This document shows, piece by piece, positions 1,123 to 18,278 of a stretch of 18,278 bases of DNA. Position numbers and translations under genes: made by a program. Origin of the DNA: a virus (lineage: Duplodnaviria > Heunggongvirae > Uroviricota > Caudoviricetes); the IMG/VR virus record IMGVR_UViG_2565956720_000017; one strand, 5' to 3'. The notes below the pieces were generated by a model, which did not search any database, had not been told where the DNA came from, and saw only the letters and a program-made list of their open reading frames with translations. Position 1 is the first letter of the stretch. Each line of letters begins with the position of its first letter.

Positions 1123-1341
1123 ATGACAGCACACAAGCCAGCATCATCAGCTATCCCAACAACTGGATACATCCGTCGCTTTCGCATGCCGGAATTGCTA
1201 GGTGTTTCACTGCCTACTATTGATAGATGGGTTAAAAATGGCACTCTTCCACGCCCAGTGAAGCTAACAGATAACGTGACTGCGTTTGATGCGGTGGAAA
1301 TTAATAACTGGCTGGCAGAACGCCGAAACACATCAGCCTGA
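1123..1341 (+). CDS. alpA: AlpA-family DNA-binding transcriptional regulator (prophage excision/regulatory protein)
   Basis: 72 aa. The sequence RMPELLGVSLPTIDRWVKNGTLPRPVKL...EINNWLAERR matches the AlpA (Phage_AlpA) helix-turn-helix signature in length and motif. Confidence 0.85.
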   Translation: MTAHKPASSAIPTTGYIRRFRMPELLGVSLPTIDRWVKNGTLPRPVKLTDNVTAFDAVEINNWLAERRNTSA

Positions 1342-2883: not shown

Positions 2884-3434
2884 ACCTGTCTTTTATGCCG
2901 GGCGCACTGAAATCTCTGTCATTAAATTCGATGACATTCAGGTGCGCATAGTGAGTATCAACGGCGAACCGTGGTTTGTTGGCGCTGATGTGTGTGCTGC
3001 GCTGGAAATCAGCAATGTTACTGATGCCGTTTCAGTTCTGGATAACGACGAGGTAATGACCCTAGCTTTAACCGAGGGGCATTCCGGTAAGCGTGGTGGT
3101 GCCAGAAGCTGGAATGTTGTCTCTGAATCAGGTTTCTACAAACTGATCGCCCGCAGCCGTAAAGCTTCCACACCAGGCACATTTGCGCACCGTTTCAGTA
3201 ACTGGGTATTCCGCGAGGTTATCCCTTCAATCCGCAAAACGGGGGGGTTATGGTGTTCCGTTTGCCATGCTGAATGATTTCAGTAAACGCCAGGCTGCCT
3301 ATCAACAGGAAGCCAGCAAACGCGGTTACAGGTTACAGCAATGCAAAGAGGCAAAAGATGCACTGGAACGAGAAGAGCGGGCGCTATGGCGTAAATATCA
3401 GCCTGATTTTCTGGAGGGTGAAAACAATGTGTAA
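2876..3434 (+). pseudogene. BRO-N domain antirepressor-like protein, interrupted by a +1 frameshift at a G7 tract
   Basis: The frame starting at 2876 (GGAGGTGA SD) encodes a BRO-N domain (FDDIQVRIVSINGEPWFVGADVCAALEI) and stops at 3277 shortly after GGGGGGG at 3241-3247. The adjacent frame then continues from the same tract to a stop at 3434 (GGYGVPFAMLNDFSKRQAAYQQ...). One fewer G would give a single protein of about 186 aa. This is either an assembly error or a real inactivating or slippage-prone tract. Confidence 0.6.
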
Positions 3435-4097: not shown

Positions 4098-4390
4098 CTT
4101 GTTGGTGCAAGGTGCAGAAACGACGAAACCCGGCAGTGCTGGAACACTAACCGGGCTTCTAACCACCAACGATAGCAGAAGTATCGAGGTAGCTATGAGA
4201 AATCATACCACACACCCGCAAGGGCGGGACTCGCACAACCTGAATAAATACATCTGGCGTTTTATCGCCCTGAGCACGGCACAACCGCGCGTAATCCACA
4301 TTGAGGCCACCAGAGAACAGGAAGCCCGTCAGCAATCCCCGGCTGGCTGCGTGATGGTATTTACTGCCCGCATCCGTCAGGAGGAACACT

Positions 4391-4648
4391 ATGCGTGATG
4401 AACGATTTATTCTTCTGGAGCAAAAATTCAGCGAAGCGCCAAAAAATGAAATTGATGCTCTTTTGCATATCGCGAATATGCTAAAAGTAGCAACGTTCCT
4501 TATAGTTTCGAATCTGGAGCATGAAACGGCGTTAGATATACTGAACAGTGCTGTCGATTATTCTGAATATATTGCCGAGGATAAATACAGGCAATTACCA
4601 GATTTGTTAACCCATAAATATAAAGAAGAACCCCATACCGGGAAATAA
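4391..4648 (+). CDS. hypothetical protein
   Basis: 85 aa with a strong SD (AGGAGG 7 nt upstream). It is the first ORF after a leader of about 290 nt. Confidence 0.6.
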   Translation: MRDERFILLEQKFSEAPKNEIDALLHIANMLKVATFLIVSNLEHETALDILNSAVDYSEYIAEDKYRQLPDLLTHKYKEEPHTGK

Positions 4649-4650
4649 AC

Positions 4651-4953
4651 ATGAAGAAGATTAAATTTACTGGCTTAAATGCCAGCGGACAGACTCACCC
4701 GAAAATCAGGATCGGGGATATTTTCCGGGATAAATATGGCGACAGTGTGGTTATTAATTCCGTGTATGAACGGCACATTACATACCGCCGCGCAGGGTAC
4801 GACTATGACTGTGTGATGCCCGTTCATCAGTTCCGGCGTGATTTTTCACTGGTATGTGCAGCACCACGCAGTAAGCCCACCAGTAAAGAGAAAGCACGGG
4901 CAAATATTCAGGTAATAAAGAACATGATTAACGCATTCAGGGGCAAGAAATGA
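4651..4953 (+). CDS. hypothetical protein
   Basis: 100 aa, tightly packed between the preceding ORF and the primase gene; its stop overlaps the primase start (ATGA). Confidence 0.55.
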   Translation: MKKIKFTGLNASGQTHPKIRIGDIFRDKYGDSVVINSVYERHITYRRAGYDYDCVMPVHQFRRDFSLVCAAPRSKPTSKEKARANIQVIKNMINAFRGKK

Positions 4954-7076
4954 AACGCGCACCGAATTTAAAGCACCAGCCGAAAGACAAAATGACGGAG
5001 GTGATTATCTTTGCGGGTAGTGATGCCTGGGCACATGCGAAAGAGTGGAGCGAATGGGCCGGAAAGCATATTGCGGCAGATGATACACATCCAGTTATTC
5101 TTGGACCGGAACAACTGGCGAGTCTGGCAGACACGCAAATCATCGACAAAGGGCGCTATTACGTGCGCGTTTATCGTGCTGGTGAAATATCAGAGCAGCA
5201 CCTTACACAGATAGCGACACTGCTTGCAGTGGCGGGTGTGAAGGAGGCGCGTTGCTACCGCAGCTTTGTTGACCAGCAGCCGGAGGACTGGACACCGCGC
5301 ATGGCTGGACTGAAGGATGATGCGGAACGCGGTAACAGTCTGGTGTTCAACCTTCCGGCAAAGACAAATTTCACCGGAAATTATGATGACGAATTAAAGC
5401 CTCGTGTTGAAAGTCGCGTCGATGGTGTTTTCTGGGTAACGCCCAAAGTGGACAAGCAGTCAGGCGAAATTATCCGGCCTGAGACGTGGTTATGTTCTCC
5501 GCTTGAACTACTGGGAACAGGAACAATCGGCAAAGAGCATTACCGCGTGATGCGCTGGAAAAAACCAGCAAACCATGAGGTCATTACAATGGCGGTCCCG
5601 TGCGGAGGCATTGGTGACCGTGACGGCTGGCGGTTGCTGAAAGACCACGGTCTTAACGTGACGACCAACGGCAAATACAGAGCCATCCTGGCTGACTGGA
5701 TGCAGTTAAGCGGAAGTCATGAGGAATGGCAGCTAAGCACTACAACGGGCTGGCATTTTGGTGCGTACATCATGCCGGATGGTTCGGTCATTGGTGAATC
5801 AGAGAAACCCATCCTGTTTACCGGAAAAACTGCCGCAGTTAATGGCTATTCCGTGGCGGGAACAGCGGAGGGCTGGCGCGATACCGTGGCGCGGCTGGCT
5901 GGTGGTAATCCGTCCATGATGCTGGGTGTGGCGGTATCGCTATCCGCACCATTAATCGGGCTGGTGGGTGCTGACGGCTTCGGGGTTCATCTTTTTGAGC
6001 AATCATCAGCAGGTAAAACCACCACACAGAACATTGCATCAAGTTTATGGGGAGAGCCGGACGCGCAACGGCTGACCTGGTACGGAACGGCGTTAGGTAT
6101 CGCCAACGAGGCCGAAGCACATAATGACGGGCTGTTACCCCTGGATGAAATAGGCCAGGCCGGAAACGCGCGGGAGGTGTCCACGTCAGCCTATACGCTG
6201 TTTAACGGTTCCGGGAAATTACAGGGGGCGAAGGACGGCGGCAACAGGGAGATAAAACACTGGCGCACGGTGGCAATCAGCACCGGAGAAATGGACGTTG
6301 AAACATTCCTCAAAACGGAAGGGATAAAAATTAAAGCGGGGCAGCTTGTCCGTCTGCTTAACGTGCCGATGGAAAAGGCATCGCAGTTTCACGAATACAG
6401 CACCGGAAAGGCGCACGCAGACGCGTTAAAAGATGCCTGGACAGAAAATCACGGGGCGGCAGGTCGTGAGTGGGTTAAATGGCTGGCAGGTCACCAGCAG
6501 GAGGCAAAGGACGCGGTAAGGGCATGTCGCGAGCGGTGGCGCAACCTGATACCGGAGAGCTACGGCGAGCAGGTTCACCGTGTGGGGGAAAGATTCGCCG
6601 TACTGGAGGCCGCGCTTGTGCTTTCCGGTCATGTTACAGGCTGGGATGTTCAGGCGTGCCGTGATGCAGTTCAGCATAACTTTAATGCCTGGGTGAAGGA
6701 ATTCGGCACGGGCAACAGGGAATTTAAACAGATGGTTGAACAGGCTGAGGCGTTTTTGTCGTCGTTCGGGTTCAGTCGATACCTTCCCTATCCAAACAGC
6801 GACGAGCGTGATTTACCGATTAAAGACCTTGCCGGATACAGAAAGGGGAGTATCAGAAACGAAGATGACGAGTTCCGTTTTTACACGTTCCCGCATGTGT
6901 TTGAGGGTGAGATAGCACAGGGATTTAATCCGTCTCACTTTGCCCGCGCGTTGAGTGCTGCCGGAATGCTGGAAGCGGGAGGCGACCGCCGTTACAAGAA
7001 AAAGGCGCTCGGCAGGATTGGCGGGAAGCAGCATATTTTTTACGTGCTGATGTTCCAGCCTGAAGCAGAAGATTAA
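4950..7076 (+). CDS. replication initiation protein, primase/helicase-like with P-loop NTPase (DUF927-like)
   Basis: 708 aa. A Walker A-like P-loop FEQSSAGKTTTQNIA sits in the central region. The gene follows alpA and small ORFs and is immediately followed by an iteron array, the layout of replication proteins in P4/CP4/PICI-type elements. The family name is from memory, not from a search. Confidence 0.7.
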   Translation: MKRAPNLKHQPKDKMTEVIIFAGSDAWAHAKEWSEWAGKHIAADDTHPVILGPEQLASLADTQIIDKGRYYVRVYRAGEISEQHLTQIATLLAVAGVKEARCYRSFVDQQPEDWTPRMAGLKDDAERGNSLVFNLPAKTNFTGNYDDELKPRVESRVDGVFWVTPKVDKQSGEIIRPETWLCSPLELLGTGTIGKEHYRVMRWKKPANHEVITMAVPCGGIGDRDGWRLLKDHGLNVTTNGKYRAILADWMQLSGSHEEWQLSTTTGWHFGAYIMPDGSVIGESEKPILFTGKTAAVNGYSVAGTAEGWRDTVARLAGGNPSMMLGVAVSLSAPLIGLVGADGFGVHLFEQSSAGKTTTQNIASSLWGEPDAQRLTWYGTALGIANEAEAHNDGLLPLDEIGQAGNAREVSTSAYTLFNGSGKLQGAKDGGNREIKHWRTVAISTGEMDVETFLKTEGIKIKAGQLVRLLNVPMEKASQFHEYSTGKAHADALKDAWTENHGAAGREWVKWLAGHQQEAKDAVRACRERWRNLIPESYGEQVHRVGERFAVLEAALVLSGHVTGWDVQACRDAVQHNFNAWVKEFGTGNREFKQMVEQAEAFLSSFGFSRYLPYPNSDERDLPIKDLAGYRKGSIRNEDDEFRFYTFPHVFEGEIAQGFNPSHFARALSAAGMLEAGGDRRYKKKALGRIGGKQHIFYVLMFQPEAED

Positions 7077-7100
7077 CTTCCCTGTGTGAGGTAAAAAGTT

Positions 7101-7224
7101 GCGGGTTATGCGGGTTATCCTGTGCATAAGTTAATTAACTGCATGATTAAAAAGGAAATCAATAACCCGCACGTAACCCGCAAAACGGCAGTTATAACCC
7201 GCAAATGTGCGATTGTAACCCGCA
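7101..7224. repeat. iteron array (putative origin of replication)
   Basis: Two tandem GCGGGTTAT copies (7101-7109, 7110-7118), then an AT-rich spacer, then four TAACCCGCA copies in the opposite orientation starting at 7163, 7174, 7195 and 7216 (spacings 11, 21 and 21 bp). It lies directly downstream of the primase stop. Confidence 0.7.
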
Positions 7225-7286
7225 AAATTTCACTGTAAGAGTGTAAACAAGCGTAACTATCACGTTAAAACCGGAGAACAAACAGC

Positions 7287-7709
7287 ATGACGGCGCAAAT
7301 ATCAGCTTACGGGCGGCTGGTGGCTGACCCGCAGTTAAAGACCACCAGCAAGGGCACACAAATGGCGATGGCGAGTATGGCGGTCCCCCTTCCATGCAAT
7401 CAGGCAGATGACGGAACGGCGACGATGTGGTTATCCGTCCTGGCGTTTGGCAGACAGGCCGACGCACTGGCAAAACACCACAAAGGCGAACTGGTGAGCG
7501 TGGCGGGTAACATGCAGGTAAGCCAGTGGACAGGCCAGAACGGCGAAACGCGGCAGGGCTGGCAGGTTATCGCAGACAGCGTAATCAGTGCGAGAACGGC
7601 GCGACCGGGCGGCAAAAAAGGCCAGCAAGGGCAGGCTACTGACGCACTGAACAGGGCAAAACAACAGGCGGGTAACGACGATCCGTACGGGGACGGGATA
7701 CCGTTTTAA
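7287..7709 (+). CDS. ssb: single-stranded DNA-binding protein (SSB-like)
   Basis: 140 aa with an OB-fold-like N-terminal region, a Gly/Gln-rich linker and the acidic C-terminal tail ...DDPYGDGIPF, which resembles the SSB DDDIPF tip. GGAGAA lies upstream. Confidence 0.7.
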   Translation: MTAQISAYGRLVADPQLKTTSKGTQMAMASMAVPLPCNQADDGTATMWLSVLAFGRQADALAKHHKGELVSVAGNMQVSQWTGQNGETRQGWQVIADSVISARTARPGGKKGQQGQATDALNRAKQQAGNDDPYGDGIPF

Positions 7710-7745
7710 TTCACAACAGCGAACAGAGTAATTACAGGGGAAGGC

Positions 7746-8243
7746 ATGACAAAGCTGACCATAAACAGAAAACCGAAGGGCATTTACGGCACGCCGCAGA
7801 AAACAGCACAGGCGGCGCAGCAGCAGAATAAAACCACATCGGCGCATAAAGTGATGCCAGATAACCAGAACACACAGCAGAAGCTCACAGGAGCAACACC
7901 GCGGCGGCGTATGACCAAACAGCAGCGTAAAAACCGCAGACGCGTTAACCGTCTTATTGAGCTATGGCCTGAATTATTCAGCCCGGAATCACCTAAGCCG
8001 CTTAAGGTGGGGATATTTGACGACCTGATACAGGATATTGCCGCGAGAGGTATTTCACTCGGACAGGGAACACTACGCGCAACGCTGGCGCGTTATGTGC
8101 AGACTCCGCGCTATTACCGCGCCCTGGTAGCTGGTGGCGCGCGTTACGACCTGAAAGGCCAGCCGTGCGGCGAGGTAACACCACTACAACAGACGCACGC
8201 AGGAAAACTACTGGAGGAGATGAATGGAAATAGTAAGAAATGA
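7746..8243 (+). CDS. ProQ/FinO-domain RNA-binding protein
   Basis: 165 aa. [30 protein letters not shown]...[11 protein letters not shown] parallels the E. coli ProQ N-terminal domain (PLKIGIFQDL...VDLDGNPCGEL) as I recall it. The N-terminus is basic and Gln-rich. Confidence 0.8.
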
Positions 8244-8640
8244 TCACGCACATGGTCGCCGTGCAGGTGATCACATTGTGGATGAAATGGCGGAAAAACA
8301 AAGAGTTGACATTATTGTCAGTGTCACAGTCGAGAGCGCGAAGCGCCAAAATAAGCGTATAAATGATCGTTCAGATGTACATGGTGTGATCACTCGTTTA
8401 CGCCAGACTTTTGTAACTCGTGAAGAGATGATTGAAGCTATTGACCAGCATACAGCATGTATCAGCGTCAGGGATATACCGGAGGTCATTGCTAACTACT
8501 TCATGATCACCAGACGCCTTTACCGGAGAAAAGACAAGAGCACGGTTAACCGTCTCCTGATGTCTGATATTCGCGAATACCTGCAAGAAAGGGGCTATGT
8601 GAATCCACCAGAACAGCGCTACGGAAGAGTCGGAGGCTAA
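8224..8640 (+). CDS. hypothetical protein
   Basis: 138 aa. The start overlaps the end of the ProQ/FinO gene and has GGAGGAG upstream. It is AT-richer than its neighbours and has no motif I recognise. Confidence 0.5.
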
Positions 8641-8725
8641 CTAAAACCCTGTACCGAAGAGCGGCGGCGCGATGGGGGTGAAGTAATGCAGTTGGGAAAC
8701 TGATAAGGAACGGTATTACATATCA

Positions 8726-8875
8726 ATGCGACGACTGGAATGTTCCAGGAAGGCACAGAGGCCACCGAAGCAACCGGATAATTTAGAAGACCTGAAACGG
8801 TCGCTTAAACGCACTGAAAAAGAAATGGGGATAGATGGGATCGGGAAATCAGTATGGCGTAACTACCAGAAGTAA
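8726..8875 (+). CDS. possible small ORF (about 49 aa)
   Basis: Hand-translated ATG-to-TAA frame (MRRLECSRKAQRPPKQPDNLEDLKRSLKRTEKEMGIDGIGKSVWRNYQK) ending 7 nt before a strong terminator. It has no good SD and is below the track's size cutoff. Confidence 0.2.
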   Translation: MRRLECSRKAQRPPKQPDNLEDLKRSLKRTEKEMGIDGIGKSVWRNYQK

Positions 8876-8881
8876 GCACAG

Positions 8882-8906
8882 AGCCGGAGCAATCCGGCTT
8901 TTTTTG
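8882..8906 (+). terminator. Rho-independent terminator ending the replication operon
   Basis: Stem AGCCGGA (8882-8888), loop GCAA, stem TCCGGCT (8893-8899), followed by a run of seven T (8900-8906). Confidence 0.7.
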
Positions 8907-9007
8907 GGGCTGAAATCAATCAATCTGTTTTTGTGATAGAAATATGTTTATCTACCACTTTTTCAGATCAATAATGTGCATAGTTTAGTCAGTAAGAGGA
9001 AATTGCT

Positions 9008-9214
9008 GTGAATTGTATTAACGACCTGAACACAGGCGATGTCAGAGGTGGTTCCGTTCATCTGGATGCACAGACCGTGATGCGCATTAAGCAGTACAGA
9101 ATCGACCATGTGAACAATCACCCTGATCAGCCATTACCAGGCGTGGCGCAGATTGTCAGACATGCCGTAAACGCCTGGCTTAATCAGAATGGTTTTGCAT
9201 CGGGGGGTGAGTAA
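9008..9214 (+). CDS. hypothetical small protein (GTG start)
   Basis: 68 aa with AAGAGGAAA 7 nt upstream of the GTG. It is the first gene after the terminator and directly upstream of the giant-protein operon. Confidence 0.45.
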   Translation: MNCINDLNTGDVRGGSVHLDAQTVMRIKQYRIDHVNNHPDQPLPGVAQIVRHAVNAWLNQNGFASGGE

Positions 9215-9310
9215 TGAATCGCTGGTACAGCATCAAAGCAGAGGGACGCCAATGTTATCTAACTCAGGTTTTATGAATTCTGACTCCCGATTCAAAATAG
9301 GAGGTTACTA

Positions 9311-11842
9311 ATGCCAGTCGTACCAACAGTATCCGGACGTCAGGTTGAGAGCCGTGGAGTTCAGTCAGCAGGCTTGCAGACGTTTTCTCAGCCAGGTATT
9401 AGTGATGCTTTTGTTCGTGCAGGAGCAGAGGCAATTGATGTTCTGGGTCAGGCAAAACAGCGTGCCAATATTGCCTTGGTTCAGGAGGCATCCCTTAAAC
9501 TCAGTCAGACAGGCAGTGATCTGCTGAATAATCCTGAAACAGGATTGCTTAACCTGAAAGGGAAAAATGCTATTGGAAAAGGCCATGAGTATACGCAGCA
9601 GTTTGATGCTCAGGTCGAACAACTGGCTATGTCGCTGCCGGATGAACAGGCCCGTAATGCTTTCATGCAGCAGGCACAGCAGCAGCGCATTCAGTTCACT
9701 ACGCAGGCCGGGCGGTACGAGATCGGGCAAATAAATGCCTACGAAGAAGGCCAGTTTCAGGCTACGCTGCTGAACAATGGTAAAAATGCCGCAGCATTGT
9801 ATGGCGACAACGCCGCATACGTATTGGCTAATAAGCAAACTTTCCAGCAAATTGAGGAGTACGGCATTGCGCATGGCTGGAGCGACGAGCAGATTCGGGC
9901 CAGGAAAATCGAGTTTAAAGAAGCAACAGCAAAAGCAACTGCTCAAAATGCTATTGGAGCAAACTATCTTCAGGTAAGACAGCAAAACGGCGAGTTAAGC
10001 GATACTGCTGCTGGAGCTCGCCGTGCTGTAGCAGATAGTGGATCTTCCGATCGTACCCGCGGTATACGCAACAATAACCCCGGCAATCTTGAATACAGCA
10101 AAACTAATCCGTGGGTTGGGCAGACTGGTGATGATGGTCGCTTTGCTAAATTCGAAACACCTGAACACGGTATTCGTGCATTAGGGCGGAACCTGATGTC
10201 GTATCAGCGGCAGGGTATTGATACCGTCAGCGAGATAATTAATCGCTGGGCACCGCCTACTGATAAAAATGACACTATGTCGTATATCAAAGCAGTGTGC
10301 GAACAACTTGGCGTTTCTGCTGATGATCCTATAGATGCATCTAATCCGGATACCCTGAAGGCGCTTTGTGCAGCCATTATCCATCATGAAAACGGTAGCC
10401 AGCCATACAGTGATCAGCAGTTAACTGCAGGTGTTAGTGCTGCGCTGGGGCTTTCTCAGCTACCGACAAAAAATAAACGTTATACCGGTGTAGCCTGGTT
10501 CGATGCTTTAAGTGAATCGGATCAGGCCAGCGTGTTGCGACAGACTGATGCACTAGCCAGACAACAGCAGGCTGAATATAAAACGATGCTCGACAGCCGG
10601 GTTCGCGATGCGACAGCTGCGTATATGCGTGGCGTTGAATTTCCTAACCCACCAGGTGAGGCTGATTTTATTGCAGCTTATGGCGTCAGAGAAGGAAACC
10701 TGCGATATACCGAGTTCAGAAATACGCAGATCGCCGGACAGTATATAGGCTCTTTCCGCAACATGCCGACAAGCAGCATTACCGCATATGTTGAGCAATT
10801 GCGCCCGGATACTGGTGAAACAGGGGAGGGGTATGCGTCTCGTGCGGAGTTATTCGACCGGGTATCGGCGGCAGCCACGAAGGTAATAACCCAGAGGCAG
10901 AATAATCCGTTTAGTGCAGCGGTGGAAATCGGAGCCTATAAGCCGATCACCAGCAACAACCCTGACGACATCACTGCCGAGGTGGCTAACCGTTTCTCGT
11001 CGCAGGAAAGCTTACGTTCGTTGGGAATTAATGCCCCAATCCTCAACAGTGAAGAGGCGGCTGCGCTGGCACAGCAGGTGCGCGGCACTCAGAACGTTGA
11101 CCAGACAATTAAACTGTTGCAGAGCATGGGGGAGAAGCTGCCTGCGCCAGCAATACGGCAGGTGGCATCTGTAATTGCTCCGAACAGTGCAGCAACAGCC
11201 TATTCTGCGCTGCTGCTGGGCACGCCGGATAATCAGTACGATAACACCAGGCCGTCGATCCCATATAGTCAGTTCATCGGGTATAAGCCGACGATGAACA
11301 AGTACGACGTTGCAAAGGTTATTCTTTCCGGCGACCAACTACTGAATCCGACGAAGGCCATGAAGAATGCGGGCATAACTCCGGTACAGTTGCCGAGCGA
11401 AGATAAGATGAAAGACGCTTTCGACGAACAGGTAGGTAATGCATTTGCCCGTAACCCGCAGTTACGCCAGATCAGTTATAGCCTTTTCAAAGCCGCTTAC
11501 GCAGGAATAGCTTATCAGTCTGGTGATGCATCTACGGTAAGAACCAGTATGCCTGATACAGACATTGTAGCTGATGCCGTGAAGTATGCTACTGGCGGTA
11601 TATACAATGGTTTTAATGGCGGCGACGTTGTAATGCCTTTCGGCATGGATAAATCTACTTTCAAAGATCGCTATACCACATCTGCGAAACAAGCACTGAA
11701 AGATGCCGGACTTAACGTAAATGCAGTGTCAAATTTCACGCCAGTTAATATCGGCAATAACCGGTATCGGCTGGTAAATGGTAGCGGACGCTGGGCAACA
11801 GATCCCAGAACCAATAAAGCTATTGTCGTGAGGGTTGAATAA
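9311..11842 (+). CDS. large protein of unknown function (843 aa), first gene of the cargo operon
   Basis: Long uninterrupted frame with a strong SD (AGGAGGT 7 nt upstream). It is Gln/Ala-rich and contains the conserved-looking block RGIRNNNPGNLEYSKTNPWVGQTGDDGRFAKFETPEHGIRALGRNLMSYQ. Its stop overlaps the next start (TAATG). Confidence 0.8.
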   Translation: MPVVPTVSGRQVESRGVQSAGLQTFSQPGISDAFVRAGAEAIDVLGQAKQRANIALVQEASLKLSQTGSDLLNNPETGLLNLKGKNAIGKGHEYTQQFDAQVEQLAMSLPDEQARNAFMQQAQQQRIQFTTQAGRYEIGQINAYEEGQFQATLLNNGKNAAALYGDNAAYVLANKQTFQQIEEYGIAHGWSDEQIRARKIEFKEATAKATAQNAIGANYLQVRQQNGELSDTAAGARRAVADSGSSDRTRGIRNNNPGNLEYSKTNPWVGQTGDDGRFAKFETPEHGIRALGRNLMSYQRQGIDTVSEIINRWAPPTDKNDTMSYIKAVCEQLGVSADDPIDASNPDTLKALCAAIIHHENGSQPYSDQQLTAGVSAALGLSQLPTKNKRYTGVAWFDALSESDQASVLRQTDALARQQQAEYKTMLDSRVRDATAAYMRGVEFPNPPGEADFIAAYGVREGNLRYTEFRNTQIAGQYIGSFRNMPTSSITAYVEQLRPDTGETGEGYASRAELFDRVSAAATKVITQRQNNPFSAAVEIGAYKPITSNNPDDITAEVANRFSSQESLRSLGINAPILNSEEAAALAQQVRGTQNVDQTIKLLQSMGEKLPAPAIRQVASVIAPNSAATAYSALLLGTPDNQYDNTRPSIPYSQFIGYKPTMNKYDVAKVILSGDQLLNPTKAMKNAGITPVQLPSEDKMKDAFDEQVGNAFARNPQLRQISYSLFKAAYAGIAYQSGDASTVRTSMPDTDIVADAVKYATGGIYNGFNGGDVVMPFGMDKSTFKDRYTTSAKQALKDAGLNVNAVSNFTPVNIGNNRYRLVNGSGRWATDPRTNKAIVVRVE

Positions 11843-13902
11843 TGTCTGATGTTTTTTCTTTGGCTCCAGAAGGTCAGGCATGGATTGACGACAAAACAGT
11901 TGCCAACCCAGCAAGGCCAGAAGACTACGATCCGACTCCATTCCAGGGTTCAGGTACTGCACTTTTGAGCGGCGTGGCGGAGGGGGCTCTCGGTCTCGCG
12001 CAGTCTGCCGTCGGATTCAGCAAGCGCCTGATTAGCGATCCGGCATTTACCGCAGACGTGGCACCGACTGTTAATATTTTTCGGGAGATGTTCCCTGATG
12101 CTGACAAAACACTGAATGATACATACGACACGATCGGAAAACAGTTACAGGATGCCCGCAGCTATGTGAAGCCTGATGCAGGCAGTCAGGGAATGGCGGC
12201 TGAGGTATTAAATGAGCTTGGTAAATTTGTTCCTGCAATCGGAACAACTATGTTTGGCGGTCCCCTCATCGGCGCTGCTACAGCTTTCAGTTCTACGTAT
12301 GAGCAGTCCTATCAGGATTTTAAAGGGAAGGGAGTAGACGAGGCTACGGCGCGTAACCTGGCAACGCAGCAAAGCCTTTTCAATGCTGTGGGTATGGCCT
12401 TACCCGCTGCCGTCGGCACCACACTGGCAACGCGCATTGCCTCAGGTGTGGCAATCAACACCGGATTCGGTGGACTGAACCGTTACTCTGTCGGCGCAAC
12501 ACTGGAGGAAAAAGGCTACACGGAGATGGCAAAACAGTACCGGGTATTTGACGGTCAGGCGATGTTAGTCGATGCCGTTTTAGGCGGGGTCTTTGGTGGC
12601 GTTCATCACCTGACTACCCATAATAACCATGATGGTACAGAGTCGAACATTTCTGCAGAAGAAATAAAATCAACTTTTGGTGAACATTATCAGCAATCTC
12701 CTGATGGTAACATTGAGTCAATGGTTCGTGATTTATCTGATTCAGGAGTAATAGAACTTATTAATGAACCAGCAATAAAAAATAGTGATGGAGAAATACT
12801 TCTGAATAAAGGTCATGTGACAGTAGCTTCTGGAAAAGAACCAATAATAAGAATAAATATTAATGGATTAAAAGATCATGAAGAACTGTTAGAAACCCTT
12901 CATCACGAGGCGCTTCATCTTGAGCAGCGCCATTACCCTGACTGGAAGGCCAGAAAGCTAGCTAATGCTGTACTTAAATCTGCAAACAAGCATTCTGACT
13001 ATCCTGAATTTGCATATGGGATGTCACAATATTATGAATATAAGAAAAGGGGTGAGTACCCTGAAACATATCCTGAGTGGTTGTACGCTGAAGAAGTTGC
13101 CGCACATGCAGTAAATCCATCTCTAAAGACAAGCGTTTCATCATGGGAAAAAATTATTTCAGGTTTTAAAGCCTATATATTCAGATACAGTGGTATTCAG
13201 GTTGGAACCGTTACACCTGAGCAGTTACGGTTACTCGTAAGTATGCGTCTTCGCAATATGAAACTGGAAGCCGCAGTCGAAAAAGTTTTTGGTATCCGGG
13301 CAAGGGAAAGAATAAAACCAAGCGATATTGATGCAGCCCACATTTTGAATGAGGGGCTTCATTACGATATTGAATCGTCACCAGTGCTTCACACCAGCAA
13401 TGAGAGCATCAACAGCCATGTTGACGCCATGGATGAAGCATACAGGCAACTTAATGATGGTCAGCCTGTAAATGTTGGGGGGATGGCGCGAGGGCTTGAT
13501 GGTCCATTGCGATCAGATATATCTGATACTTACCAAGAGCAATACCATGAAATACAAAAGGTTTTTGAAGAAAATGGTGTCAGATATGAAACATCATCAG
13601 AGCCAATTAGTGAATCGCCTGTCCCTCGTGCTGAAAGTGCTTTCTCATCGGCTGGTGAACACAGAGGGGACGTCAGCGTTGATCCAGATACAGGGCAGGT
13701 TCTCTCATCCAACAGCTATGACCTTATGGCTGCCAGAGACATGGCTGTTGCCAATCCTGAGCTGACTATAGCTCACCCGGAAACCGGAAACCCGACAAAA
13801 CTTTCTGATCTCCTGGCTGAGTTGGATGAACAGATTAAGACAGTCCAGAACGAATCGAAGGTTTATTCTGTAGCGGCAGCGTGCTTCTTGAGGAACCCAT
13901 AA
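11842..13902 (+). CDS. large protein of unknown function (686 aa) with Gly/Ala-rich hydrophobic segments and an inserted HExxH module
   Basis: TAATG start overlap with the upstream gene and GAGGG upstream. The N-terminal half has several Gly/Ala-rich hydrophobic stretches (for example FVPAIGTTMFGGPLIGAATAF and AVGMALPAAVGTTLATRIASGVAINTGFGG). The central AT-rich segment encodes HHEALHLEQRHYPDW. The C-terminus is acidic. Confidence 0.8.
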   Translation: MSDVFSLAPEGQAWIDDKTVANPARPEDYDPTPFQGSGTALLSGVAEGALGLAQSAVGFSKRLISDPAFTADVAPTVNIFREMFPDADKTLNDTYDTIGKQLQDARSYVKPDAGSQGMAAEVLNELGKFVPAIGTTMFGGPLIGAATAFSSTYEQSYQDFKGKGVDEATARNLATQQSLFNAVGMALPAAVGTTLATRIASGVAINTGFGGLNRYSVGATLEEKGYTEMAKQYRVFDGQAMLVDAVLGGVFGGVHHLTTHNNHDGTESNISAEEIKSTFGEHYQQSPDGNIESMVRDLSDSGVIELINEPAIKNSDGEILLNKGHVTVASGKEPIIRININGLKDHEELLETLHHEALHLEQRHYPDWKARKLANAVLKSANKHSDYPEFAYGMSQYYEYKKRGEYPETYPEWLYAEEVAAHAVNPSLKTSVSSWEKIISGFKAYIFRYSGIQVGTVTPEQLRLLVSMRLRNMKLEAAVEKVFGIRARERIKPSDIDAAHILNEGLHYDIESSPVLHTSNESINSHVDAMDEAYRQLNDGQPVNVGGMARGLDGPLRSDISDTYQEQYHEIQKVFEENGVRYETSSEPISESPVPRAESAFSSAGEHRGDVSVDPDTGQVLSSNSYDLMAARDMAVANPELTIAHPETGNPTKLSDLLAELDEQIKTVQNESKVYSVAAACFLRNP

Positions 13903-16658
13903 TGAAACAGGCATGTGTTGAAGCTATTGCGCAGACACTTGGTCGCCAGCCAAAGGCTGATGAGCTGAAAAATATTGAAGATCGTATCAAAGAAGCTGTG
14001 CAGCATGTGCACAGAAAGAATGCAAAAGAAGGAAAAAGTGGTATTCCTGATGCTCAAACATACATGGATGCAGCAGAACTGGTACGCCAGCGTGTGGTTC
14101 ATGATGTGTACAAGAAAAGACAGCGTGTTGCCCACAATGCGATCGCCATCAGTAAAATTATTGACACTCTCGATGCTAACATCCCGCCTGATCAGCAGAC
14201 ACCTGTTAATTTGCAGCAGTTTATTTTTGCTGGCCGACGATCGAGAGACAAAGCTGATATCTCCGTTACTTCTGCTGAAGAGCTTGCAATTGGGGCATAT
14301 CAGGACTGGTCCCGTCAGCTCAGTGCTGAACTTCTAAAAGCAGGTGATGACGTCCGCAAATTCTTCGAGCAGAGCAGGGCGCTTGGAGAGCAGCGGTTTC
14401 GGAGTGTATTCGACAGGCAGGCGGCAAAGTCTGCACAACTCCAGATCCTTAAAGAGATTTACGGCGAAGATACCGGGAATCCACTGGCGAAGAAAATTGC
14501 ACAGATTTGGAAGGATGTAACAAGCCGTGTTCGCCATGAGATGAACGACAACGGCTTTGACATAGGCCAGCGAGACGACTGGAATATGCCATATGTGGAT
14601 GATGCTGACCTTATTCGCAATGCCGGGCGCGAAGAATGGCTGGCATCGTTACCAGTGACAGAACAAGCTACAGCACGTCTTTCAGGTCGCCAGCCACCGA
14701 TTGAGTTTGCCCGCCAGGCATGGGTTGATGACGTTTACAACACGCAGGATCGCAGCAATTACGTTAATCCTGATGGCAGCATTATGAATGACGTTGAGTA
14801 CCGTCAGGCACTGGAAGCGATCTTTGAAACGAAGGCCACTGATGGGGCAAACAAAATTGAGCCTGGTACATTTATGGGAGCCGGAGGAATAAAGAGCCGT
14901 GGTTCTCAGCACAGGGTGATGGCGTTCAAGGATGCGCAGTCACACTTCGCCTATATGGAGCGATACACTCAGCAGCCGCTGGTGGGGGTGATGATGTCGC
15001 ACCTGCAATCATCATCCAGGGATTTGGGCGTCGTTAAAGCCTTTGGTCCGGACGCCGAAAGAAACTTTTCCCTGGTACTGGATCGCATCTATAAGCGCGC
15101 AGTAACAGGCGGGAAACGCAAAAAAGAAATGGAGGATGAGGCCAAATTAGTAGCCCGTATGTTCAACTCAATGGCTGGCCTAAATGGTGTCGCTTCATCG
15201 AGTGTGTTCTCTTCAGCTGTTGGTGGTCTGCGTAACCTGATGACCAGCGCCATGCTTGGCACCAGCGTACTGACAGCAACCAGCGACCAGGCAATTATGC
15301 GGGCAAATGCGCAGGCGCTGGGCTTTACCCGTGGTGGAATGCGGCTTTCCGTTAACACTATCAAAAACCTGTTTAGTGGAGATGCCAAAAAGGCGAATGC
15401 TGAACTCGGTCTGCTGGTGGATTCACATGCTGCTGTGGTTTCGAAAATGGGCGGGTTTGACTTGTCTCGCGGCATAACTGGCTGGTTCGCAGAGAAGACA
15501 CTGAAGTGGTCCGGGCTGATCGCTATGGACCGCGCAAACAAAGCGTCGTTTGGTCTCCTGATGTACAAAAACATTGGCGAGCTGACCAGAAAATTTAAGA
15601 CGCTGGACGATATGAAAGGAACCGATAAAACCATTCTGGCTAACAAGGGATGGAGCAATGAGGACTGGGCCATCATGGCAGCGGCAGAACTCAGGCCGAT
15701 GACTACAGCCGGGCATATGGGGATGACGCCAGACGCGATTTACGCTGTGCCCGATAACGTAATCGCCGACATTATGGCAGACCGTATTGCCCGGATTCGT
15801 GCCGGGAGTGAAAAGGCACTGGCAGCCCTTGGTGATCTCCCTCCAGAACGCCAGAAACGGATGAAAGAAGCATTCGACGCTGAGGCTGAGCAGACCATCA
15901 TGCGCATGATTCGTAATGCACGCGCTGAAGCAGCCCAGAAATTGCTGGGAATTACGCACGGTGAGATGACCAATGCTGTGACCACCGCTACGGGTATTGA
16001 TACATATGCCCGTGATGATGCTGGCGAGTTAATGAAGAGCTTCATGCTCTTCAAAACAACCCCATTTGCTGGATTTCGGCAACTTGTTAACAGAACACGG
16101 GATTTGGACACCGTTCCGGCCATTAAATTTCTGGCCTCATATATCGGGGGAACAACTCTTGCTGGTATGTTTGCGATCCAGATGAACAGTTTGTTAAATG
16201 GTAATGACCCGCTGGATATGACAAAACCAACCACATGGGTTCAGGCTCTACTGAAAGGTGGTTCGTTCGGTATCTACGGTGATTTTATTTTCCAGGACCA
16301 TACGCAATATGGCTCCAGCATCGGTGCCACTATGGGTGGCCCTGTGTTGAGCTTTGCAGAGCAGTTAACAAAATTACTGATTACTAACCCACAGAAGGCT
16401 ATACAGGGTGAAGAAACATCATTCGGTGCCGATGCACTGAAAACAGCCCGCATGATCACCCCATTCGCAAACCTGTGGTATGCGAAAGCGATAACCAATC
16501 ACCTGATATTGCAACAACTTCAGGAGATGGCAAACCCTGGTTACAATGATCGAGTAAGGGACCGCGCGCAACGGGAGTTCGACATAACGAGTTGGTGGGA
16601 ACCGGGTGCTATTGCGCCACGTAGAGCACCGGATTTTGGAAAGGCGGTGGGGAACTGA
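13902..16658 (+). CDS. large protein of unknown function (about 918 aa)
   Basis: Start placed at the ATG at 13902, which overlaps the upstream stop (TAATG) and has GAGGAA upstream. The track's start at 13881 lies inside the previous gene and lacks an SD. Gly/Ser/Ala-rich hydrophobic patches occur in the C-terminal third. Confidence 0.75.
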   Translation: MKQACVEAIAQTLGRQPKADELKNIEDRIKEAVQHVHRKNAKEGKSGIPDAQTYMDAAELVRQRVVHDVYKKRQRVAHNAIAISKIIDTLDANIPPDQQTPVNLQQFIFAGRRSRDKADISVTSAEELAIGAYQDWSRQLSAELLKAGDDVRKFFEQSRALGEQRFRSVFDRQAAKSAQLQILKEIYGEDTGNPLAKKIAQIWKDVTSRVRHEMNDNGFDIGQRDDWNMPYVDDADLIRNAGREEWLASLPVTEQATARLSGRQPPIEFARQAWVDDVYNTQDRSNYVNPDGSIMNDVEYRQALEAIFETKATDGANKIEPGTFMGAGGIKSRGSQHRVMAFKDAQSHFAYMERYTQQPLVGVMMSHLQSSSRDLGVVKAFGPDAERNFSLVLDRIYKRAVTGGKRKKEMEDEAKLVARMFNSMAGLNGVASSSVFSSAVGGLRNLMTSAMLGTSVLTATSDQAIMRANAQALGFTRGGMRLSVNTIKNLFSGDAKKANAELGLLVDSHAAVVSKMGGFDLSRGITGWFAEKTLKWSGLIAMDRANKASFGLLMYKNIGELTRKFKTLDDMKGTDKTILANKGWSNEDWAIMAAAELRPMTTAGHMGMTPDAIYAVPDNVIADIMADRIARIRAGSEKALAALGDLPPERQKRMKEAFDAEAEQTIMRMIRNARAEAAQKLLGITHGEMTNAVTTATGIDTYARDDAGELMKSFMLFKTTPFAGFRQLVNRTRDLDTVPAIKFLASYIGGTTLAGMFAIQMNSLLNGNDPLDMTKPTTWVQALLKGGSFGIYGDFIFQDHTQYGSSIGATMGGPVLSFAEQLTKLLITNPQKAIQGEETSFGADALKTARMITPFANLWYAKAITNHLILQQLQEMANPGYNDRVRDRAQREFDITSWWEPGAIAPRRAPDFGKAVGN

Positions 16659-16972
16659 TGACGAGAGATAAAATTGAATATATTGCTTCTCTTAAATATG
16701 AAGCTGAGAAATGGAGAAGGATTGGCGGGTGGGGAACATTAATATCACTCTCTGCTTTACTTATAGACTCCTGGTTCAGACATATTGATGCAGCATCATT
16801 ACTTTTTGAATCAGCAGTACTTGGTGGATTCATTTGCTGTTGGGGTGGTAATTATGATCGGGCGTCCAAACATAAGAGAGAACTTGACGCGATATGTTTT
16901 GCTTTATTCGGTAAGGATTACGAAAGTTCTGACCTTGATATAATTGAATTCAACAAAACGGAACTATCGTGA
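16658..16972 (+). CDS. small membrane protein (two predicted hydrophobic helices)
   Basis: 104 aa with a start overlapping the upstream stop (TGATG). Two hydrophobic segments (GTLISLSALLIDSWF and LLFESAVLGGFICCWGG) are visible. It is AT-richer than the operon and followed directly by a strong terminator. Confidence 0.6.
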   Translation: MTRDKIEYIASLKYEAEKWRRIGGWGTLISLSALLIDSWFRHIDAASLLFESAVLGGFICCWGGNYDRASKHKRELDAICFALFGKDYESSDLDIIEFNKTELS

Positions 16973-16980
16973 CATGTCAC

Positions 16981-17006
16981 AAGGCCGCTTTCGCGGCCTT
17001 GTTTTT
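16981..17006 (+). terminator. Rho-independent terminator ending the cargo operon
   Basis: 8-bp GC-rich stem AAGGCCGC / GCGGCCTT with TTTC loop (16981-17000), followed by GTTTTT (17001-17006). Confidence 0.8.
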
Positions 17007-17676
17007 AACGAATGCCACCGCCGCCCGGGCGGGAAACCGCAGATAAAAAAGCCCGCTGCGCGGTTTTATTAATACTTATACCATGGGGATTGATCCTTCA
17101 ATGGACAATCCTTCCATCGTGTGGCCAGCCATTCATATTCTTTGTCTTTTCTTCAGTACCGGCTTTGCATCTTCTACACCCTGAAAGATGTCGTTTTATG
17201 GTGTATCTGATGATTTATTCCCTAACAATAGATATTCGAAAAATTAATCAGTTAAAACAATTATTTGGATAATTTCAGGTAAAACTATCTTAATCTTCTG
17301 GTGGATCTCAATGCGCAGTGACGGTATCGGGATTAACGGCGTGGATATGCGCGATATATGCCGCTACACCCCTCAACAGTAATAGATATGCGCTTTTTAC
17401 GCTCTCCTTTCACTGTTGAGAACGGCAACAATGTGCCACAGGAACGCGCTGTAATCGATTCTGACGCACTTAATTGCGTTGGGTAATGGTTTGCCAGCCT
17501 GTGGGGGTAACTCTGTTTTATGAGGCTTTGGCTATAGTGCAAAAATGCACTTTGTCTTGCCTCTCAATTTGATGAGACTGGAACGACAACAGGACAGACC
17601 ACCAGCAACAGTTACCGTATTCAGCCGTTCTGTAGCACCAGTGGAACTATCCACCCCAGCTTTCAGCAATGTGTTT

Positions 17677-17829
17677 GCGGGTTATTTTGGGGCGTTTGCG
17701 GGTTATTTGGGATGTTTTGCGGGTTATGCGATGCTTGAATAATGAACAGTGCATTTTTCAACATATTGATACTAAAGAACAAAAAATAGTTAGCACGCTA
17801 AGATAACCCGGTAACCCGCATAACCCGCA
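17677..17829. repeat. second iteron cluster (cis replication region-like), mirror image of the first
   Basis: Three GCGGGTTAT copies at 17677, 17698 and 17719 (exact 21-bp phasing), then an AT-rich spacer, then ATAACCCGG / TAACCCGCA / TAACCCGCA at 17803-17829 in the opposite orientation. A (TA)n run follows at about 17839-17850. Confidence 0.7.
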
Positions 17830-18278
17830 CTGTTTTGTATATATATATACGAAAAATTGCATTCAGGAGGGGGGATCGAAATCCCTACAACCCATTGCTT
17901 ATGGGACCGCCGCCTCGTCAAATTTTTACACCCGCGAAATAAAAAATACTTCACGCTGGTGGGCATGATGCTGATATGAGAGGCTTCCATAACGCCACCA
18001 TTCGAAACTATGCAAATCTGCATAGAAAAGGGGATGCCTGATACAATACCCTCGCCCGATAAAATCACACCGATAAACTCATCTGCCACGAGTAGAAAGA
18101 GCGAACGAACCCGATACGCAGTAATGCTGGTCGGGTCCAGCTTTTTAAGGCGGCTGTAGATATCAGGCCATCCGTGATCATCCACCAGCGTAATTGCTGA
18201 ACGCTTTAAAAAAACGTGTACATAAGGGTGTACATAATCAAAAACCGCATTAGAAAGAAACCAGATACAATGCGGCAT

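Follow-up and report, generated by a model that had tools for sequence, protein, structure and literature searches.

The operon at positions 9311-16972 of the window (the whole stretch of 18,278 nt analysed here) encodes three large proteins that are, by their sequences, homologues of the internal core/DNA-ejection proteins of Uetakevirus, and it resides in a phage satellite of E. coli. The full-length homology to gp15, gp16 and gp17, in the same gene order, points to a temperate podovirus of the epsilon15/phiV10 type as the source of the block. Known satellites steal or resize capsids, redirect the terminase, or build heads of their own; to our knowledge, there is no description of one that provides the ejection (core) proteins by which DNA crosses the envelope. 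We consider it probable that this captured helper late module has been kept functional and equips helper-built particles with satellite-encoded ejection proteins.

A PICI-type island at yicC

The island comprises 19,773 bp, almost all of which is covered by the window, and is integrated at the 3' end of yicC in E. coli. A 21-bp att core, corresponding to the yicC 3' end, is found on both sides of the island, and other strains possess the empty site. Genome context places the island end and the attR core 21 nt past the window end, where dinD adjoins, yicC and dinD being the flanking genes. A tyrosine integrase with Arm-DNA-bind_3 and Phage_integrase domains is encoded just upstream of the window (positions 13736-15004 of the genomic locus L001). 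The backbone features within the window are as follows:

1..651, + strand: 216-aa ORF directly 3' of the integrase gene, in the integration zone (phrog_30524, unknown function; annotation of the identical E. coli locus)
1123..1341, + strand: AlpA-family HTH regulator/excisionase (Pfam Phage_AlpA, 6e-6, above the curated cut-off)
1416..3434, + strand: Bro zone
1416-2114, + strand: Rha-family regulator of the Bro zone
2107-2883, + strand: GIY-YIG/T5orf172 protein of the Bro zone
2876-3434, + strand: frameshifted BRO-N/antirepressor gene of the Bro zone
4195..7076, + strand: replication zone
4195-4398, + strand: Icd-like gene, followed by an 85-aa ORF
4651-4953, + strand: DUF4222 gene of the replication zone
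4950-7076, + strand: DUF927 primase-helicase gene of the replication zone
7100..7225, no strand: iteron cluster 1, candidate ori just 3' of the DUF927 gene, an AT-rich spacer surrounded by two direct and four inverted copies of TGCGGGTTA
7287-7709, + strand: SSB, in the gene group 7287..8875
7746-8243, + strand: ProQ/FinO-family protein
8224-8640, + strand: 138-aa ORF
8649-8875, + strand: frameshifted PerC-family gene
17676..17830, no strand: iteron cluster 2, within the island and 3' of the operon, with three direct and two to three inverted copies of TGCGGGTTA

The element exhibits a tyrosine integrase at one end, flanking att direct repeats where it is inserted in a conserved part of the chromosome, an AlpA-family regulator adjoining int, with Bro-network genes after it, its own primase/helicase with adjacent origin repeats (DUF927, iterons, SSB), and a length of 19,773 bp, far below that of a phage genome, with no full set of virion and lysis genes. 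On these features, the window represents nearly the whole of a Gram-negative PICI-type phage satellite of E. coli, and the satellite-like character proposed in an earlier, sequence-only reading of this DNA is borne out by int, AlpA, Bro, DUF927, SSB and the att repeats. Helper-induced excision, replication and high-frequency packaging of the island are suggested only indirectly, by its co-occurrence with Uetakevirus prophages and by its use of two integration sites with different integrases (both described below). The arrangement resembles that of the Gram-negative PICIs (Fillol-Salom 2018/2019, EcCICFT073), which likewise combine int and AlpA, Bro genes, primase/SSB/ori and a late zone holding a helper late-gene block, and which integrate at the 3' end of a conserved gene between att repeats. 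The integrase plus primase-helicase replicon and the two iteron sites, comparable to ori/crr of P4, also recall P4 and the capsid-forming PICIs (cf-PICIs). The island differs from cf-PICIs in having no capsid, portal or connector gene. Pfam and PHROG scans of its ORFs matched no Sid, Psu or Delta-like proteins, and a search for a lambda-type cos site (cosN) was negative. An Rfam search returned no family at gathering score, only a sub-threshold SymR-like match.

The operon, its proteins and its junctions

The operon consists of four translationally coupled ORFs on the + strand, bounded by two terminators and located between the two iteron clusters. This organization, already proposed from the letters, was seen directly, the overlaps being TAATG at 11840-11844 and 13900-13904 and TGATG at 16656-16660:

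9311..11842, + strand: homologue of epsilon15 gp15, 843 aa, internal virion protein with a peptidoglycan-hydrolase domain
11842..13902, + strand: homologue of epsilon15 gp16, 686 aa
13902..16658, + strand: homologue of epsilon15 gp17, 918 aa from the ATG in TAATG, internal core protein
16658..16972, + strand: small hydrophobic protein, 104 aa

For the gp17 homologue, the program that listed the ORFs starts at an upstream GTG (13881). The proteins can no longer be called unassigned, as PHROGs (992, 1145 and 684, full length, for the three large proteins) and BLAST gave full-length matches to known virion proteins. The whole operon is 77.5% identical in nucleotide sequence to epsilon15 12140-19319, with amino acid identities of 78% for gp15, 83% and 74% for the two ends of gp16, and 89% for gp17; the resemblance to podovirus internal-virion/ejection proteins, earlier noticed in composition only, is real homology (78-89% aa to epsilon15 gp15/gp16/gp17). 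The gene order (gp15, gp16, gp17, small ORF, palindrome, terminator) is that of Uetakevirus, and the overlapping stop/start codons and the gp15 hydrolase domain are also shared with epsilon15/phiV10. In contrast to these phages, the genes lie outside a phage, a satellite leader drives them, and the operon is a mosaic.

The hydrolase domain of the gp15 homologue spans approximately residues 245-403; residues 249-403 match Gp29 of PDB 9vvp (3e-38), and the domain also matches the endolysin of PDB 7q47 (3e-17) and PHROG endolysin/transglycosylase families. The 5' 1.5 kb of this gene is of the phiV10 type (89-100% nt) and the remainder of the epsilon15 type. The N-terminal 277 aa of the gp16 homologue contain moderately hydrophobic, Gly/Ala-rich stretches (39-59, 126-150, 177-205, 235-259), followed by a variable centre (278-479) whose island version occurs, among the loci compared, only in satellite copies and matched no phage copy. 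The gp17 homologue has one such stretch at 738-761. The 104-aa protein, with one clear hydrophobic segment and one weaker, is found directly 3' of gp17 in true Uetakevirus prophages (80-84% aa), as an alternative to epsilon15 gp18.

In epsilon15, gp17 is an internal core protein (PMC5850374), and the presence of gp15-gp17 in the virion and their ejection into the cell have been reported (PMC5850374, PMC12391199); we infer that the island copies would likewise be incorporated into virions. The T7 gp14/gp15/gp16 and P22 gp7/gp20/gp16 ejectosomes offer a functional analogy, in that their internal virion proteins are ejected and span the envelope, one of them bears a peptidoglycan hydrolase domain, and they have hydrophobic segments and evolve rapidly as mosaics (PMC8954989). 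The comparison with T7 and P22 suggested earlier yielded no similarity beyond this analogy: searches of the gp16- and gp17-like families against the PDB, with single sequences and profiles, gave no matches, and Foldseek with an all-alpha AlphaFold2 model of the gp17-like protein, whose mid-confidence (pLDDT 61) limits the comparison, retrieved nothing below E 0.1. Scans of the four proteins against Pfam, NCBIfam and PADLOC were also negative.

A six-frame search of the whole island identified no counterpart of epsilon15 genes beyond gp15-17 and a distant integrase, and none of the terminase, portal, major capsid, gp11/gp12 tail, gp13/gp14, tailspike or lysis genes, whereas the complete Uetakevirus gene set is present in the true prophages compared (L007-L010, L012-L014 and L095). 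The earlier observation that no capsid, portal, terminase or tail genes lie nearby holds equally just outside the window. Lacking gp13 and gp14, the core protein set of the island is incomplete, which on gene content makes it still helper-dependent.

The sequences surrounding the operon delimit the captured segment:

8883..8905, + strand: intrinsic terminator closing the upstream genes, hairpin GCCGGAGCAATCCGGC followed by a T-run
8906..9214, + strand: satellite late-operon leader, consisting of a conserved, promoter/operator-like stretch of approximately 100 nt and a 68-aa ORF
9008-9214, + strand: the 68-aa ORF of the leader, ribbon-helix-helix-like by eye (phrog_4934)
9214..9242, + strand: left recombination junction, with the first ~10 codons left of a ClpP-protease/major-capsid fusion gene
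9243..9310, + strand: final 68 nt of a phage core gene (T7-gp14 family), the rest of which is absent, with the AGGAGG RBS of the gp15 homologue
16968..17006, + strand: end of the phage-derived operon, palindrome CGTGACATGTCACA (16968-16981) and intrinsic terminator (16979-17006; -19 kcal/mol, z -5.4)
17007..17143, no strand: last phage-derived stretch

The phage segment (9243-17143, 7.9 kb) begins 68 nt 5' of the gp15 start codon and ends just past the phage late-operon terminator. Similarity to L005-type satellites of E. coli resumes by 17311, which places the right junction between 17143 and 17311; the ORF at 17012-17272 is unlikely to be a gene. On both sides, the block adjoins satellite DNA common to the L005 type. 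These satellites (int, AlpA-like HTH, Icd-like, DUF4222, DUF5906 primase, SSB) share backbone segments with the island at 70-93% nucleotide identity, as well as the late leader with its 68-aa ORF, which is about 87% identical and precedes a ClpP-protease/MCP fusion gene and a TerS-like DUF1441 gene at the matching place. The capsid-fusion remnant of the island reads MNRWYSIKA, versus MNHWYTIKA in L005. Their late cassette measures 2.75 kb against 7.9 kb of podovirus core genes in the island, and their total length is about 11 kb against 19.8 kb. Comparison of the loci demonstrates that the phage block replaced an ancestral protease/capsid-fusion plus TerS-like cassette behind the satellite's own leader. 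The term cargo, applied to the operon earlier, is consequently inappropriate, because the operon sits in the late (morphogenetic) slot of the satellite. A homology of the 68-aa leader ORF to epsilon15 gp3 was considered and rejected on comparison; this ORF shows no similarity to the small ORF 5' of gp15 in the Pectobacterium island described below, and no motif common to the island leader and the helper genome was found.

PICIs are already known to take up clusters of helper late genes in their 'Late zone' (Tommasini, Mageeney & Williams, 10.1101/2022.07.18.500453). Those captures involve lambdoid (cos, siphovirus) helpers, capsid genes being the commonest, whereas in the present island the source is a podovirus, only ejection/core proteins were taken, and no capsid or TerS/Rpp-like gene is left. 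In the literature searched, we found no description of satellites carrying ejection/core proteins.

Conservation across islands and the link to Uetakevirus prophages

A sibling island at tRNA-Gly, for which an att repeat was looked for and not found, has a different integrase, att site and Bro zone (AntA/AntB), and all four operon ORFs are intact in it with identical lengths. Nonsynonymous to synonymous differences between the two islands amount to 51:88, 0:16 (gp16) and 18:19, and so few nonsynonymous changes would arise under neutrality with an overall P of 7e-32. Substitution patterns thus demonstrate purifying selection on the operon genes across islands with different integrases, very strong in the case of gp16, as for a working structural protein. 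The constraint on gp17 is weaker in satellites, with an omega of 0.20-0.28 against a median of 0.066 for phage copies.

The island is present in 37 of 5426 complete E. coli genomes, and 901 contigs encode the exact gp16-like protein. The same three genes are carried by at least two other satellite lineages, one represented by L050/L052 and another by L011 and L100 of Pectobacterium, and in these two the block has the same left boundary at the gp14/gp15 junction. The gp15-17 genes of each lineage are closer to phage copies than to those of other satellites. The Pectobacterium lineage encodes a P4-alpha-like Zn-ribbon/Toprim/DUF927 primase. L050 had been considered as a circular permutation of L052, that is, an excised form, and is better explained by a second integrase downstream.

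A second copy of the gp15 5' end was detected in 16 of 35 island genomes versus approximately 6.8% of the others, an odds ratio of 11.6 that is uncorrected for phylogeny and ignores the clonal relatedness of strains; about half of the island-bearing genomes have no second gp15 copy at megablast sensitivity. Uetakevirus gp16/gp17 occur as two deeply divergent allelic types, and island strains often possess a complete Uetakevirus prophage with the type other than that of the island. Strain PU-1, used for the comparison with a co-resident prophage, holds a complete Uetakevirus prophage with phiV10-type gp17, and island and resident E. coli prophage gp17 are of opposite type, with 27% amino acid identity. 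The 5' end of island gp15, in turn, matches that of resident-type prophages at 96.6-100% identity, implying recent recombination. Natural phages with portal-to-gp14 modules 97-100% identical carry either core type, so that the two types are interchangeable.

Possible roles of the operon

Of the three roles put forward earlier, packaging into helper-phage particles is the one favoured here. Upon induction of, or infection by, a Uetakevirus helper, the island would excise, replicate from its iterons and express the operon, and the satellite core proteins would become part of helper-made capsids, at the portal. Ejected during infection, they would form a trans-envelope channel that delivers the packaged DNA, and the satellite would thereby be independent of the fast-diverging core allele of the helper. 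The island, 0.50 of the phiV10/epsilon15 genome in length, would fill a headful as a dimer. Against this scheme, no pac-site mimic or TerS that would let a headful terminase choose the island was found in it, the only k-mers common to the island and the helper terS region being a terminator-associated palindrome, and the ancestral TerS-like gene and cos-like site were lost. The cost of the operon, 39% of the island length for proteins that the helper already makes, also weighs against the scheme, as do the weaker constraint on gp17 in satellites, the lack of gp13 and gp14, and the island-bearing genomes in which no second gp15 copy was seen. More tentatively, the island may exemplify a class of podovirus-parasitising satellites that bring their own ejection allele rather than remodelling capsids or redirecting terminase, their DNA thereby entering cells that exclude the helper's type. 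Such cells could be helper lysogens with superinfection exclusion or hosts with defences acting on DNA entry, and at least three satellite lineages would have acquired or retained the trait.

A different function, which we regard as rather unlikely, is that of an interference or defence module, in which foreign-type core proteins co-assemble with a helper or superinfecting Uetakevirus into defective cores, or block ejection in the envelope, so that phage yield falls to the benefit of satellite and host population. Satellites typically interfere with helpers (PMC6739421), the island gp16/gp17 are of the type opposite to that of resident prophages, the gp15 N-terminus, matching resident phages, could dock in helper structures, and the constraint on gp17 is relaxed or altered in satellites. 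However, the interchangeability of core types on identical portal-to-gp14 backgrounds indicates compatibility rather than poisoning, poisoned particles would be the very pool that the satellite needs, gp16 is under very strong purifying selection, and PADLOC gave no matches. It is less probable still that the block is a functionless by-product, an accidental recombinant of satellite and co-resident prophage serving as filler DNA, for instance to reach half a helper headful. Junctions resembling illegitimate recombination (the 10-codon capsid-gene and 68-nt gp14 remnants), the half-genome length and the raised gp17 omega would agree with this, but not the intactness and equal lengths of all four ORFs across islands differing in integrase, att site and Bro zone, the strong synonymous excess including 0:16 in gp16, the recurrence of the same three-gene block and left boundary in two further satellite lineages, or the wide distribution of the island.

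The remaining explanations are far weaker. The sequence-only reading was to be refuted by full-length homology to virion proteins of a complete prophage with morphogenesis genes continuing just outside the window. Half of this came true, in that the homology to phage virion proteins was obtained. It would agree with an ordinary Uetakevirus prophage of which only a remnant is seen, the other structural genes having decayed or lying beyond the window, and in E. coli some 'PICI' calls by SatelliteFinder have proved to be intact Uetakevirus prophages (PMC10121019). Nonetheless, the operon is not part of a complete prophage: att repeats 21 nt past the window and next to the integrase, the yicC/dinD flanks and the empty site bound the island, the block is flanked on both sides by L005-type satellite DNA, and the six-frame search found no other epsilon15 gene. 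The att-bounded context and this search refute the remnant reading, to which we assign a very low probability. Slightly less credible even than this is a toxin/effector operon whose small membrane protein confers immunity, or a novel anti-phage system unrelated to virions, as might be suspected from large proteins without Pfam domains and a small hydrophobic protein ending the operon; no toxin or defence family was matched, the Pfam, NCBIfam and PADLOC scans leaving the earlier toxin/effector proposal without support, and syntenic orthologues of all four genes, that of the 104-aa protein among them, occur in the late structural operon of complete phages.

If the satellite-encoded ejection proteins are incorporated and used, the DNA entry step of transduction would come under satellite control, adding a point of conflict between helper and satellite. 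Nature would then also offer two allelic ejectosome types for comparison on a single capsid background, making the fast divergence of podovirus ejection proteins addressable. Three 'hypothetical proteins' present in hundreds of genomes can now be named. Being fairly common in E. coli, with relatives in Pectobacterium, the island may matter for gene flow. Its carriers include avian and extra-intestinal pathogenic E. coli strains.

Operon layout and relation to epsilon15

The sequence-only reading had described four translationally coupled ORFs delimited by terminators, and this layout was confirmed. The ORFs are as follows:

9311-11842, + strand: ORF 1, gp15-like protein (protein 1)
11842-13902, + strand: ORF 2, gp16-like protein (protein 2)
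13902-16658, + strand: ORF 3, gp17-like protein (protein 3)
16658-16972, + strand: ORF 4, 104-aa protein

The overlapping stop/start signals read TAATG (11840-11844), TAATG (13900-13904) and TGATG (16656-16660). The operon is followed by a strong intrinsic terminator (16979-17006, -19 kcal/mol, z -5.4), and the upstream terminator lies at 8883-8905. The two iteron clusters also proved real, consisting of TGCGGGTTA at 7100-7225 and 17676-17830, and the Gly/Ala-rich stretches of proteins 2 and 3 were found to be moderately hydrophobic.

A megablast search against phage genomes aligned the whole operon with positions 12140-19319 of Salmonella phage epsilon15 (77.5% nucleotide identity). Protein 1 is 78% identical to gp15 over its full length, protein 3 is 89% identical to gp17, and protein 2 matches gp16 over residues 1-277 (83%) and 480-686 (74%), its centre remaining without a match. 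PHROG families 992, 1145 and 684 match the three large proteins end to end. Residues 249-403 of protein 1 match phage Gp29 (PDB 9vvp, 3e-38) and an endolysin (7q47), and make up its cell-wall hydrolase domain. The 104-aa protein shows no similarity to epsilon15 gp18; it is encoded, at 80-84% identity, directly behind gp17 in true Uetakevirus prophages, e.g., in Ca. Erwinia dacicola. None of the four proteins had a match in Pfam, NCBIfam or PADLOC, and structure-based comparison of the gp16- and gp17-like proteins with T7 and P22 ejection proteins yielded none either. In epsilon15, gp15 and gp16/17 are listed among the parts of the packaging/injection device (PMC12391199), and the internal core gives rise to a tubular channel during infection (PMC5850374).

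Some E. coli "PICI" calls are intact Uetakevirus prophages (Hochhauser et al., PMC10121019). That explanation was rejected for this island, which has no counterpart of any epsilon15 gene beyond gp15-17, gp13 and gp14 being absent. Taken together, the identity of the operon and the anatomy of the island are very well supported.

A 14-bp palindrome, (T/C)GTGACATGTCAC(A/G), occurs once in the island (16968-16981), directly ahead of the terminator; both elements are phage-derived too. In Uetakevirus genomes the palindrome directly precedes terminators at three operon ends (2141, 19516 and 39611 in epsilon15, locus L004; 3170, 5435 and 22963 in the PU-1 prophage, locus L095), with 3-4 copies per phage genome vs 0.15-0.19 expected. 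The motif may have a regulatory or processing function linked to termination.

The island and its late region

The E. coli chromosome NZ_AP038810.1 is identical to the window except for a single 1-nt length difference, and carries this sequence between yicC and dinD. Comparison with an empty yicC-dinD site revealed, at each end of a 19,773-bp island, a 21-bp att core that corresponds to the final 21 nt of yicC. All of this island is in the window apart from the integrase gene and the terminal 21 nt ahead of attR. The gene order is:

start: integrase, 216-aa ORF, AlpA
next: Rha, GIY-YIG/T5orf172 protein, frameshifted BRO-N gene
next: YlcI/YnfO, Icd-like, DUF4222, DUF927 primase-helicase, iterons, SSB
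end: ProQ/FinO, 138-aa ORF, frameshifted PerC gene, then the operon

This order fits the Integration / Bro / Replication / Late zone plan of Gram-negative PICIs (10.1101/2022.07.18.500453).

The late region retains traces of an exchange. Just 5' of the operon, positions 8893-9245 comprise a conserved stretch of ~100 nt that resembles a promoter/operator, together with a 68-aa ORF, and share ~87% identity with the leader of L005, another E. coli satellite type that is far more common. In L005 this leader is followed by a ClpP-protease/major-capsid fusion gene and by a DUF1441 gene with matches to TerS PHROGs. At the left junction, the first ~10 codons of the capsid-fusion gene are left at 9214-9242, and the final 68 nt of a T7-gp14-family phage gene (9243-9310) join this remnant to the gp15 start codon. 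At the right junction, phage similarity stops at 17143 and similarity to the L005 right end returns from 17311; the second iteron cluster lies past the captured phage block, yet inside the island. The leader, the capsid-fusion remnant, the gp14-family remnant and the junctions together indicate that the satellite exchanged its 2.75-kb capsid/TerS-like cassette for 7.9 kb of phage DNA, which occupies the late slot and follows the leader of the satellite itself. Both the ancestral TerS-like gene and a cos-like site were lost, and no pac site or TerS was found in the island.

Several smaller features accompany this architecture. In the annotation of the two island variants examined (yicC and tRNA-Gly), the PerC-family regulator gene (8649-8875) carries a frameshift, and the BRO-N gene (2876-3434) is frameshifted in the yicC island. 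Just 5' of the late leader, the 138-aa ORF (8224-8640) has a PHROG hit to an "anti-repressor Ant" family over residues 57-127 and a weak one to a "terminase" family over residues 5-68; its product might bind DNA and be of relevance for packaging or regulation. The GIY-YIG/T5orf172 protein of the Bro zone (2107-2883) weakly matches the PADLOC candidate system PDC-S57 (9e-8), and its position is taken by an AntA/AntB antirepressor in the sibling island. P4-like and PICI Bro zones encode small immunity RNAs. Adjoining the Icd-like gene on its upstream side, Rfam gave a hit to the SymR antitoxin RNA that stays below threshold (4122-4194, - strand; 33 bits vs a gathering score of 61, E 0.006) and is probably due to chance. 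The annotated 227-aa "hypothetical protein" (17790-18278, - strand, to position 33477 of the genome context locus L001), which starts outside the island and crosses attR inward, is probably not a genuine gene.

Distribution and related satellites

The leader and operon were found in 37 of 5426 complete E. coli genomes at 96.6-100% identity, and the exact gp16-like protein on 901 contigs of E. coli, E. albertii and Shigella. In a sibling island (L006), located at a tRNA-Gly gene, the integrase differs and AntA/B replaces Rha/GIY-YIG; all four operon ORFs are of identical length in both islands. Nonsynonymous:synonymous differences between them amount to 51:88 (gp15-like), 0:16 (gp16-like) and 18:19 (gp17-like), a pattern far from neutral. 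For gp17, omega is 0.20-0.28 in satellites vs a median of 0.066 for similarly diverged pairs of phages, whereas for gp16 it is 0-0.016 in satellite copies vs 0.08 in phages. Constraint in the satellite setting has shifted, being weaker on gp17 and tighter on gp16 than in phages.

Two further satellite lineages hold the same three genes without a portal, capsid or gp11-14 gene; the remaining relatives examined were all complete phages. One (L050/L052) has a DUF927 protein of 61% aa identity and gp15/16/17 of 73/75/87%, its phage similarity starting 15 nt upstream of the gp15 start. The other, in Pectobacterium zantedeschiae (L011) and P. carotovorum (L100), has a P4-alpha-like primase and gp15/16/17 of 48/42/73% aa identity. 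The genes of each lineage are nearer to phage copies than to those of other satellites, which implies independent capture or continuing exchange with phages.

The P. zantedeschiae satellite also carries QueC-like and nucleoside 2-deoxyribosyltransferase-like genes (L011 5419-7367, - strand), possibly for 7-deazaguanine-type DNA modification. In P. carotovorum, a further integrase lies downstream of the satellite, with Thoeris ThsA/ThsB next to it (L100 18645-20062).

Uetakeviruses as candidate helpers

We propose that induction of, or infection by, a Uetakevirus helper would lead to island excision, replication from its iterons and transcription of the operon from the late leader. The three satellite proteins would then be assembled into helper capsids as the internal core and ejected at the next infection, when gp15 would cut the cell wall and gp16/gp17 would insert to form a channel delivering the DNA. 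The island is 0.50 of the length of helper genomes (39.1-39.7 kb), so two copies could fill one headful. The main candidate benefits for the satellite are that it no longer depends on the diverging core allele of its helper, that it evades exclusion at the entry level, or that it interferes with the helper. We infer this function with moderate confidence. That PICIs take up late genes of a helper into their late zone has been published for lambdoid helpers, mostly involving capsid genes (10.1101/2022.07.18.500453); in the literature, we found no description of a satellite carrying only podovirus ejection/core proteins.

The first 450 nt of the gp15-like gene were found in 403 genomes. A second gp15 5' copy is present in 16 of 35 island genomes vs ~6.8% of others (odds ratio 11.6, P 3e-10, ignoring clonality), and no helper was detectable in half of the genomes with an island. 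The PU-1 genome has its second copy in a Uetakevirus prophage that is complete, with genes for terminase, portal, capsid, tail, endosialidase spike and lysis. ExPEC XM and 22-245 are further strains in which the island and a Uetakevirus prophage occur together. The 5' 1.5 kb of the island gp15 is 96.6% identical to this prophage, and its 5' 450 nt are 100% identical to prophages of strains without the island; this near-identity points to recent recombination with resident phages.

The gp16/gp17 genes of the PU-1 prophage are of the phiV10 type, its gp17 being ~27% identical to that of the island. Over gp15, gp16 and gp17, the island and helper proteins differ at 33-73% of residues. This type was found in 324 genomes, and epsilon15-type prophages are rare in E. 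coli. Within Uetakevirus, gp16 and gp17 come in two allelic types that have diverged deeply from each other (~30% and 26% aa identity), with the swap breakpoint falling within gp15. Either type is carried by phages whose portal-to-gp14 modules are 97-100% identical (Citrobacter prophages L010 and L013 vs epsilon15; PU-1 prophage), and the types are therefore plug-compatible. Their swapping looks like a diversifying module exchange of the ejection apparatus.

PU-1 is a K1-type strain, and its candidate helper prophage has an endosialidase tailspike (L095 25372-28491), which makes it a temperate Uetakevirus specific for the K1 capsule. Among the strains that carry the island, several are avian or extra-intestinal pathogens of type O2:K1.
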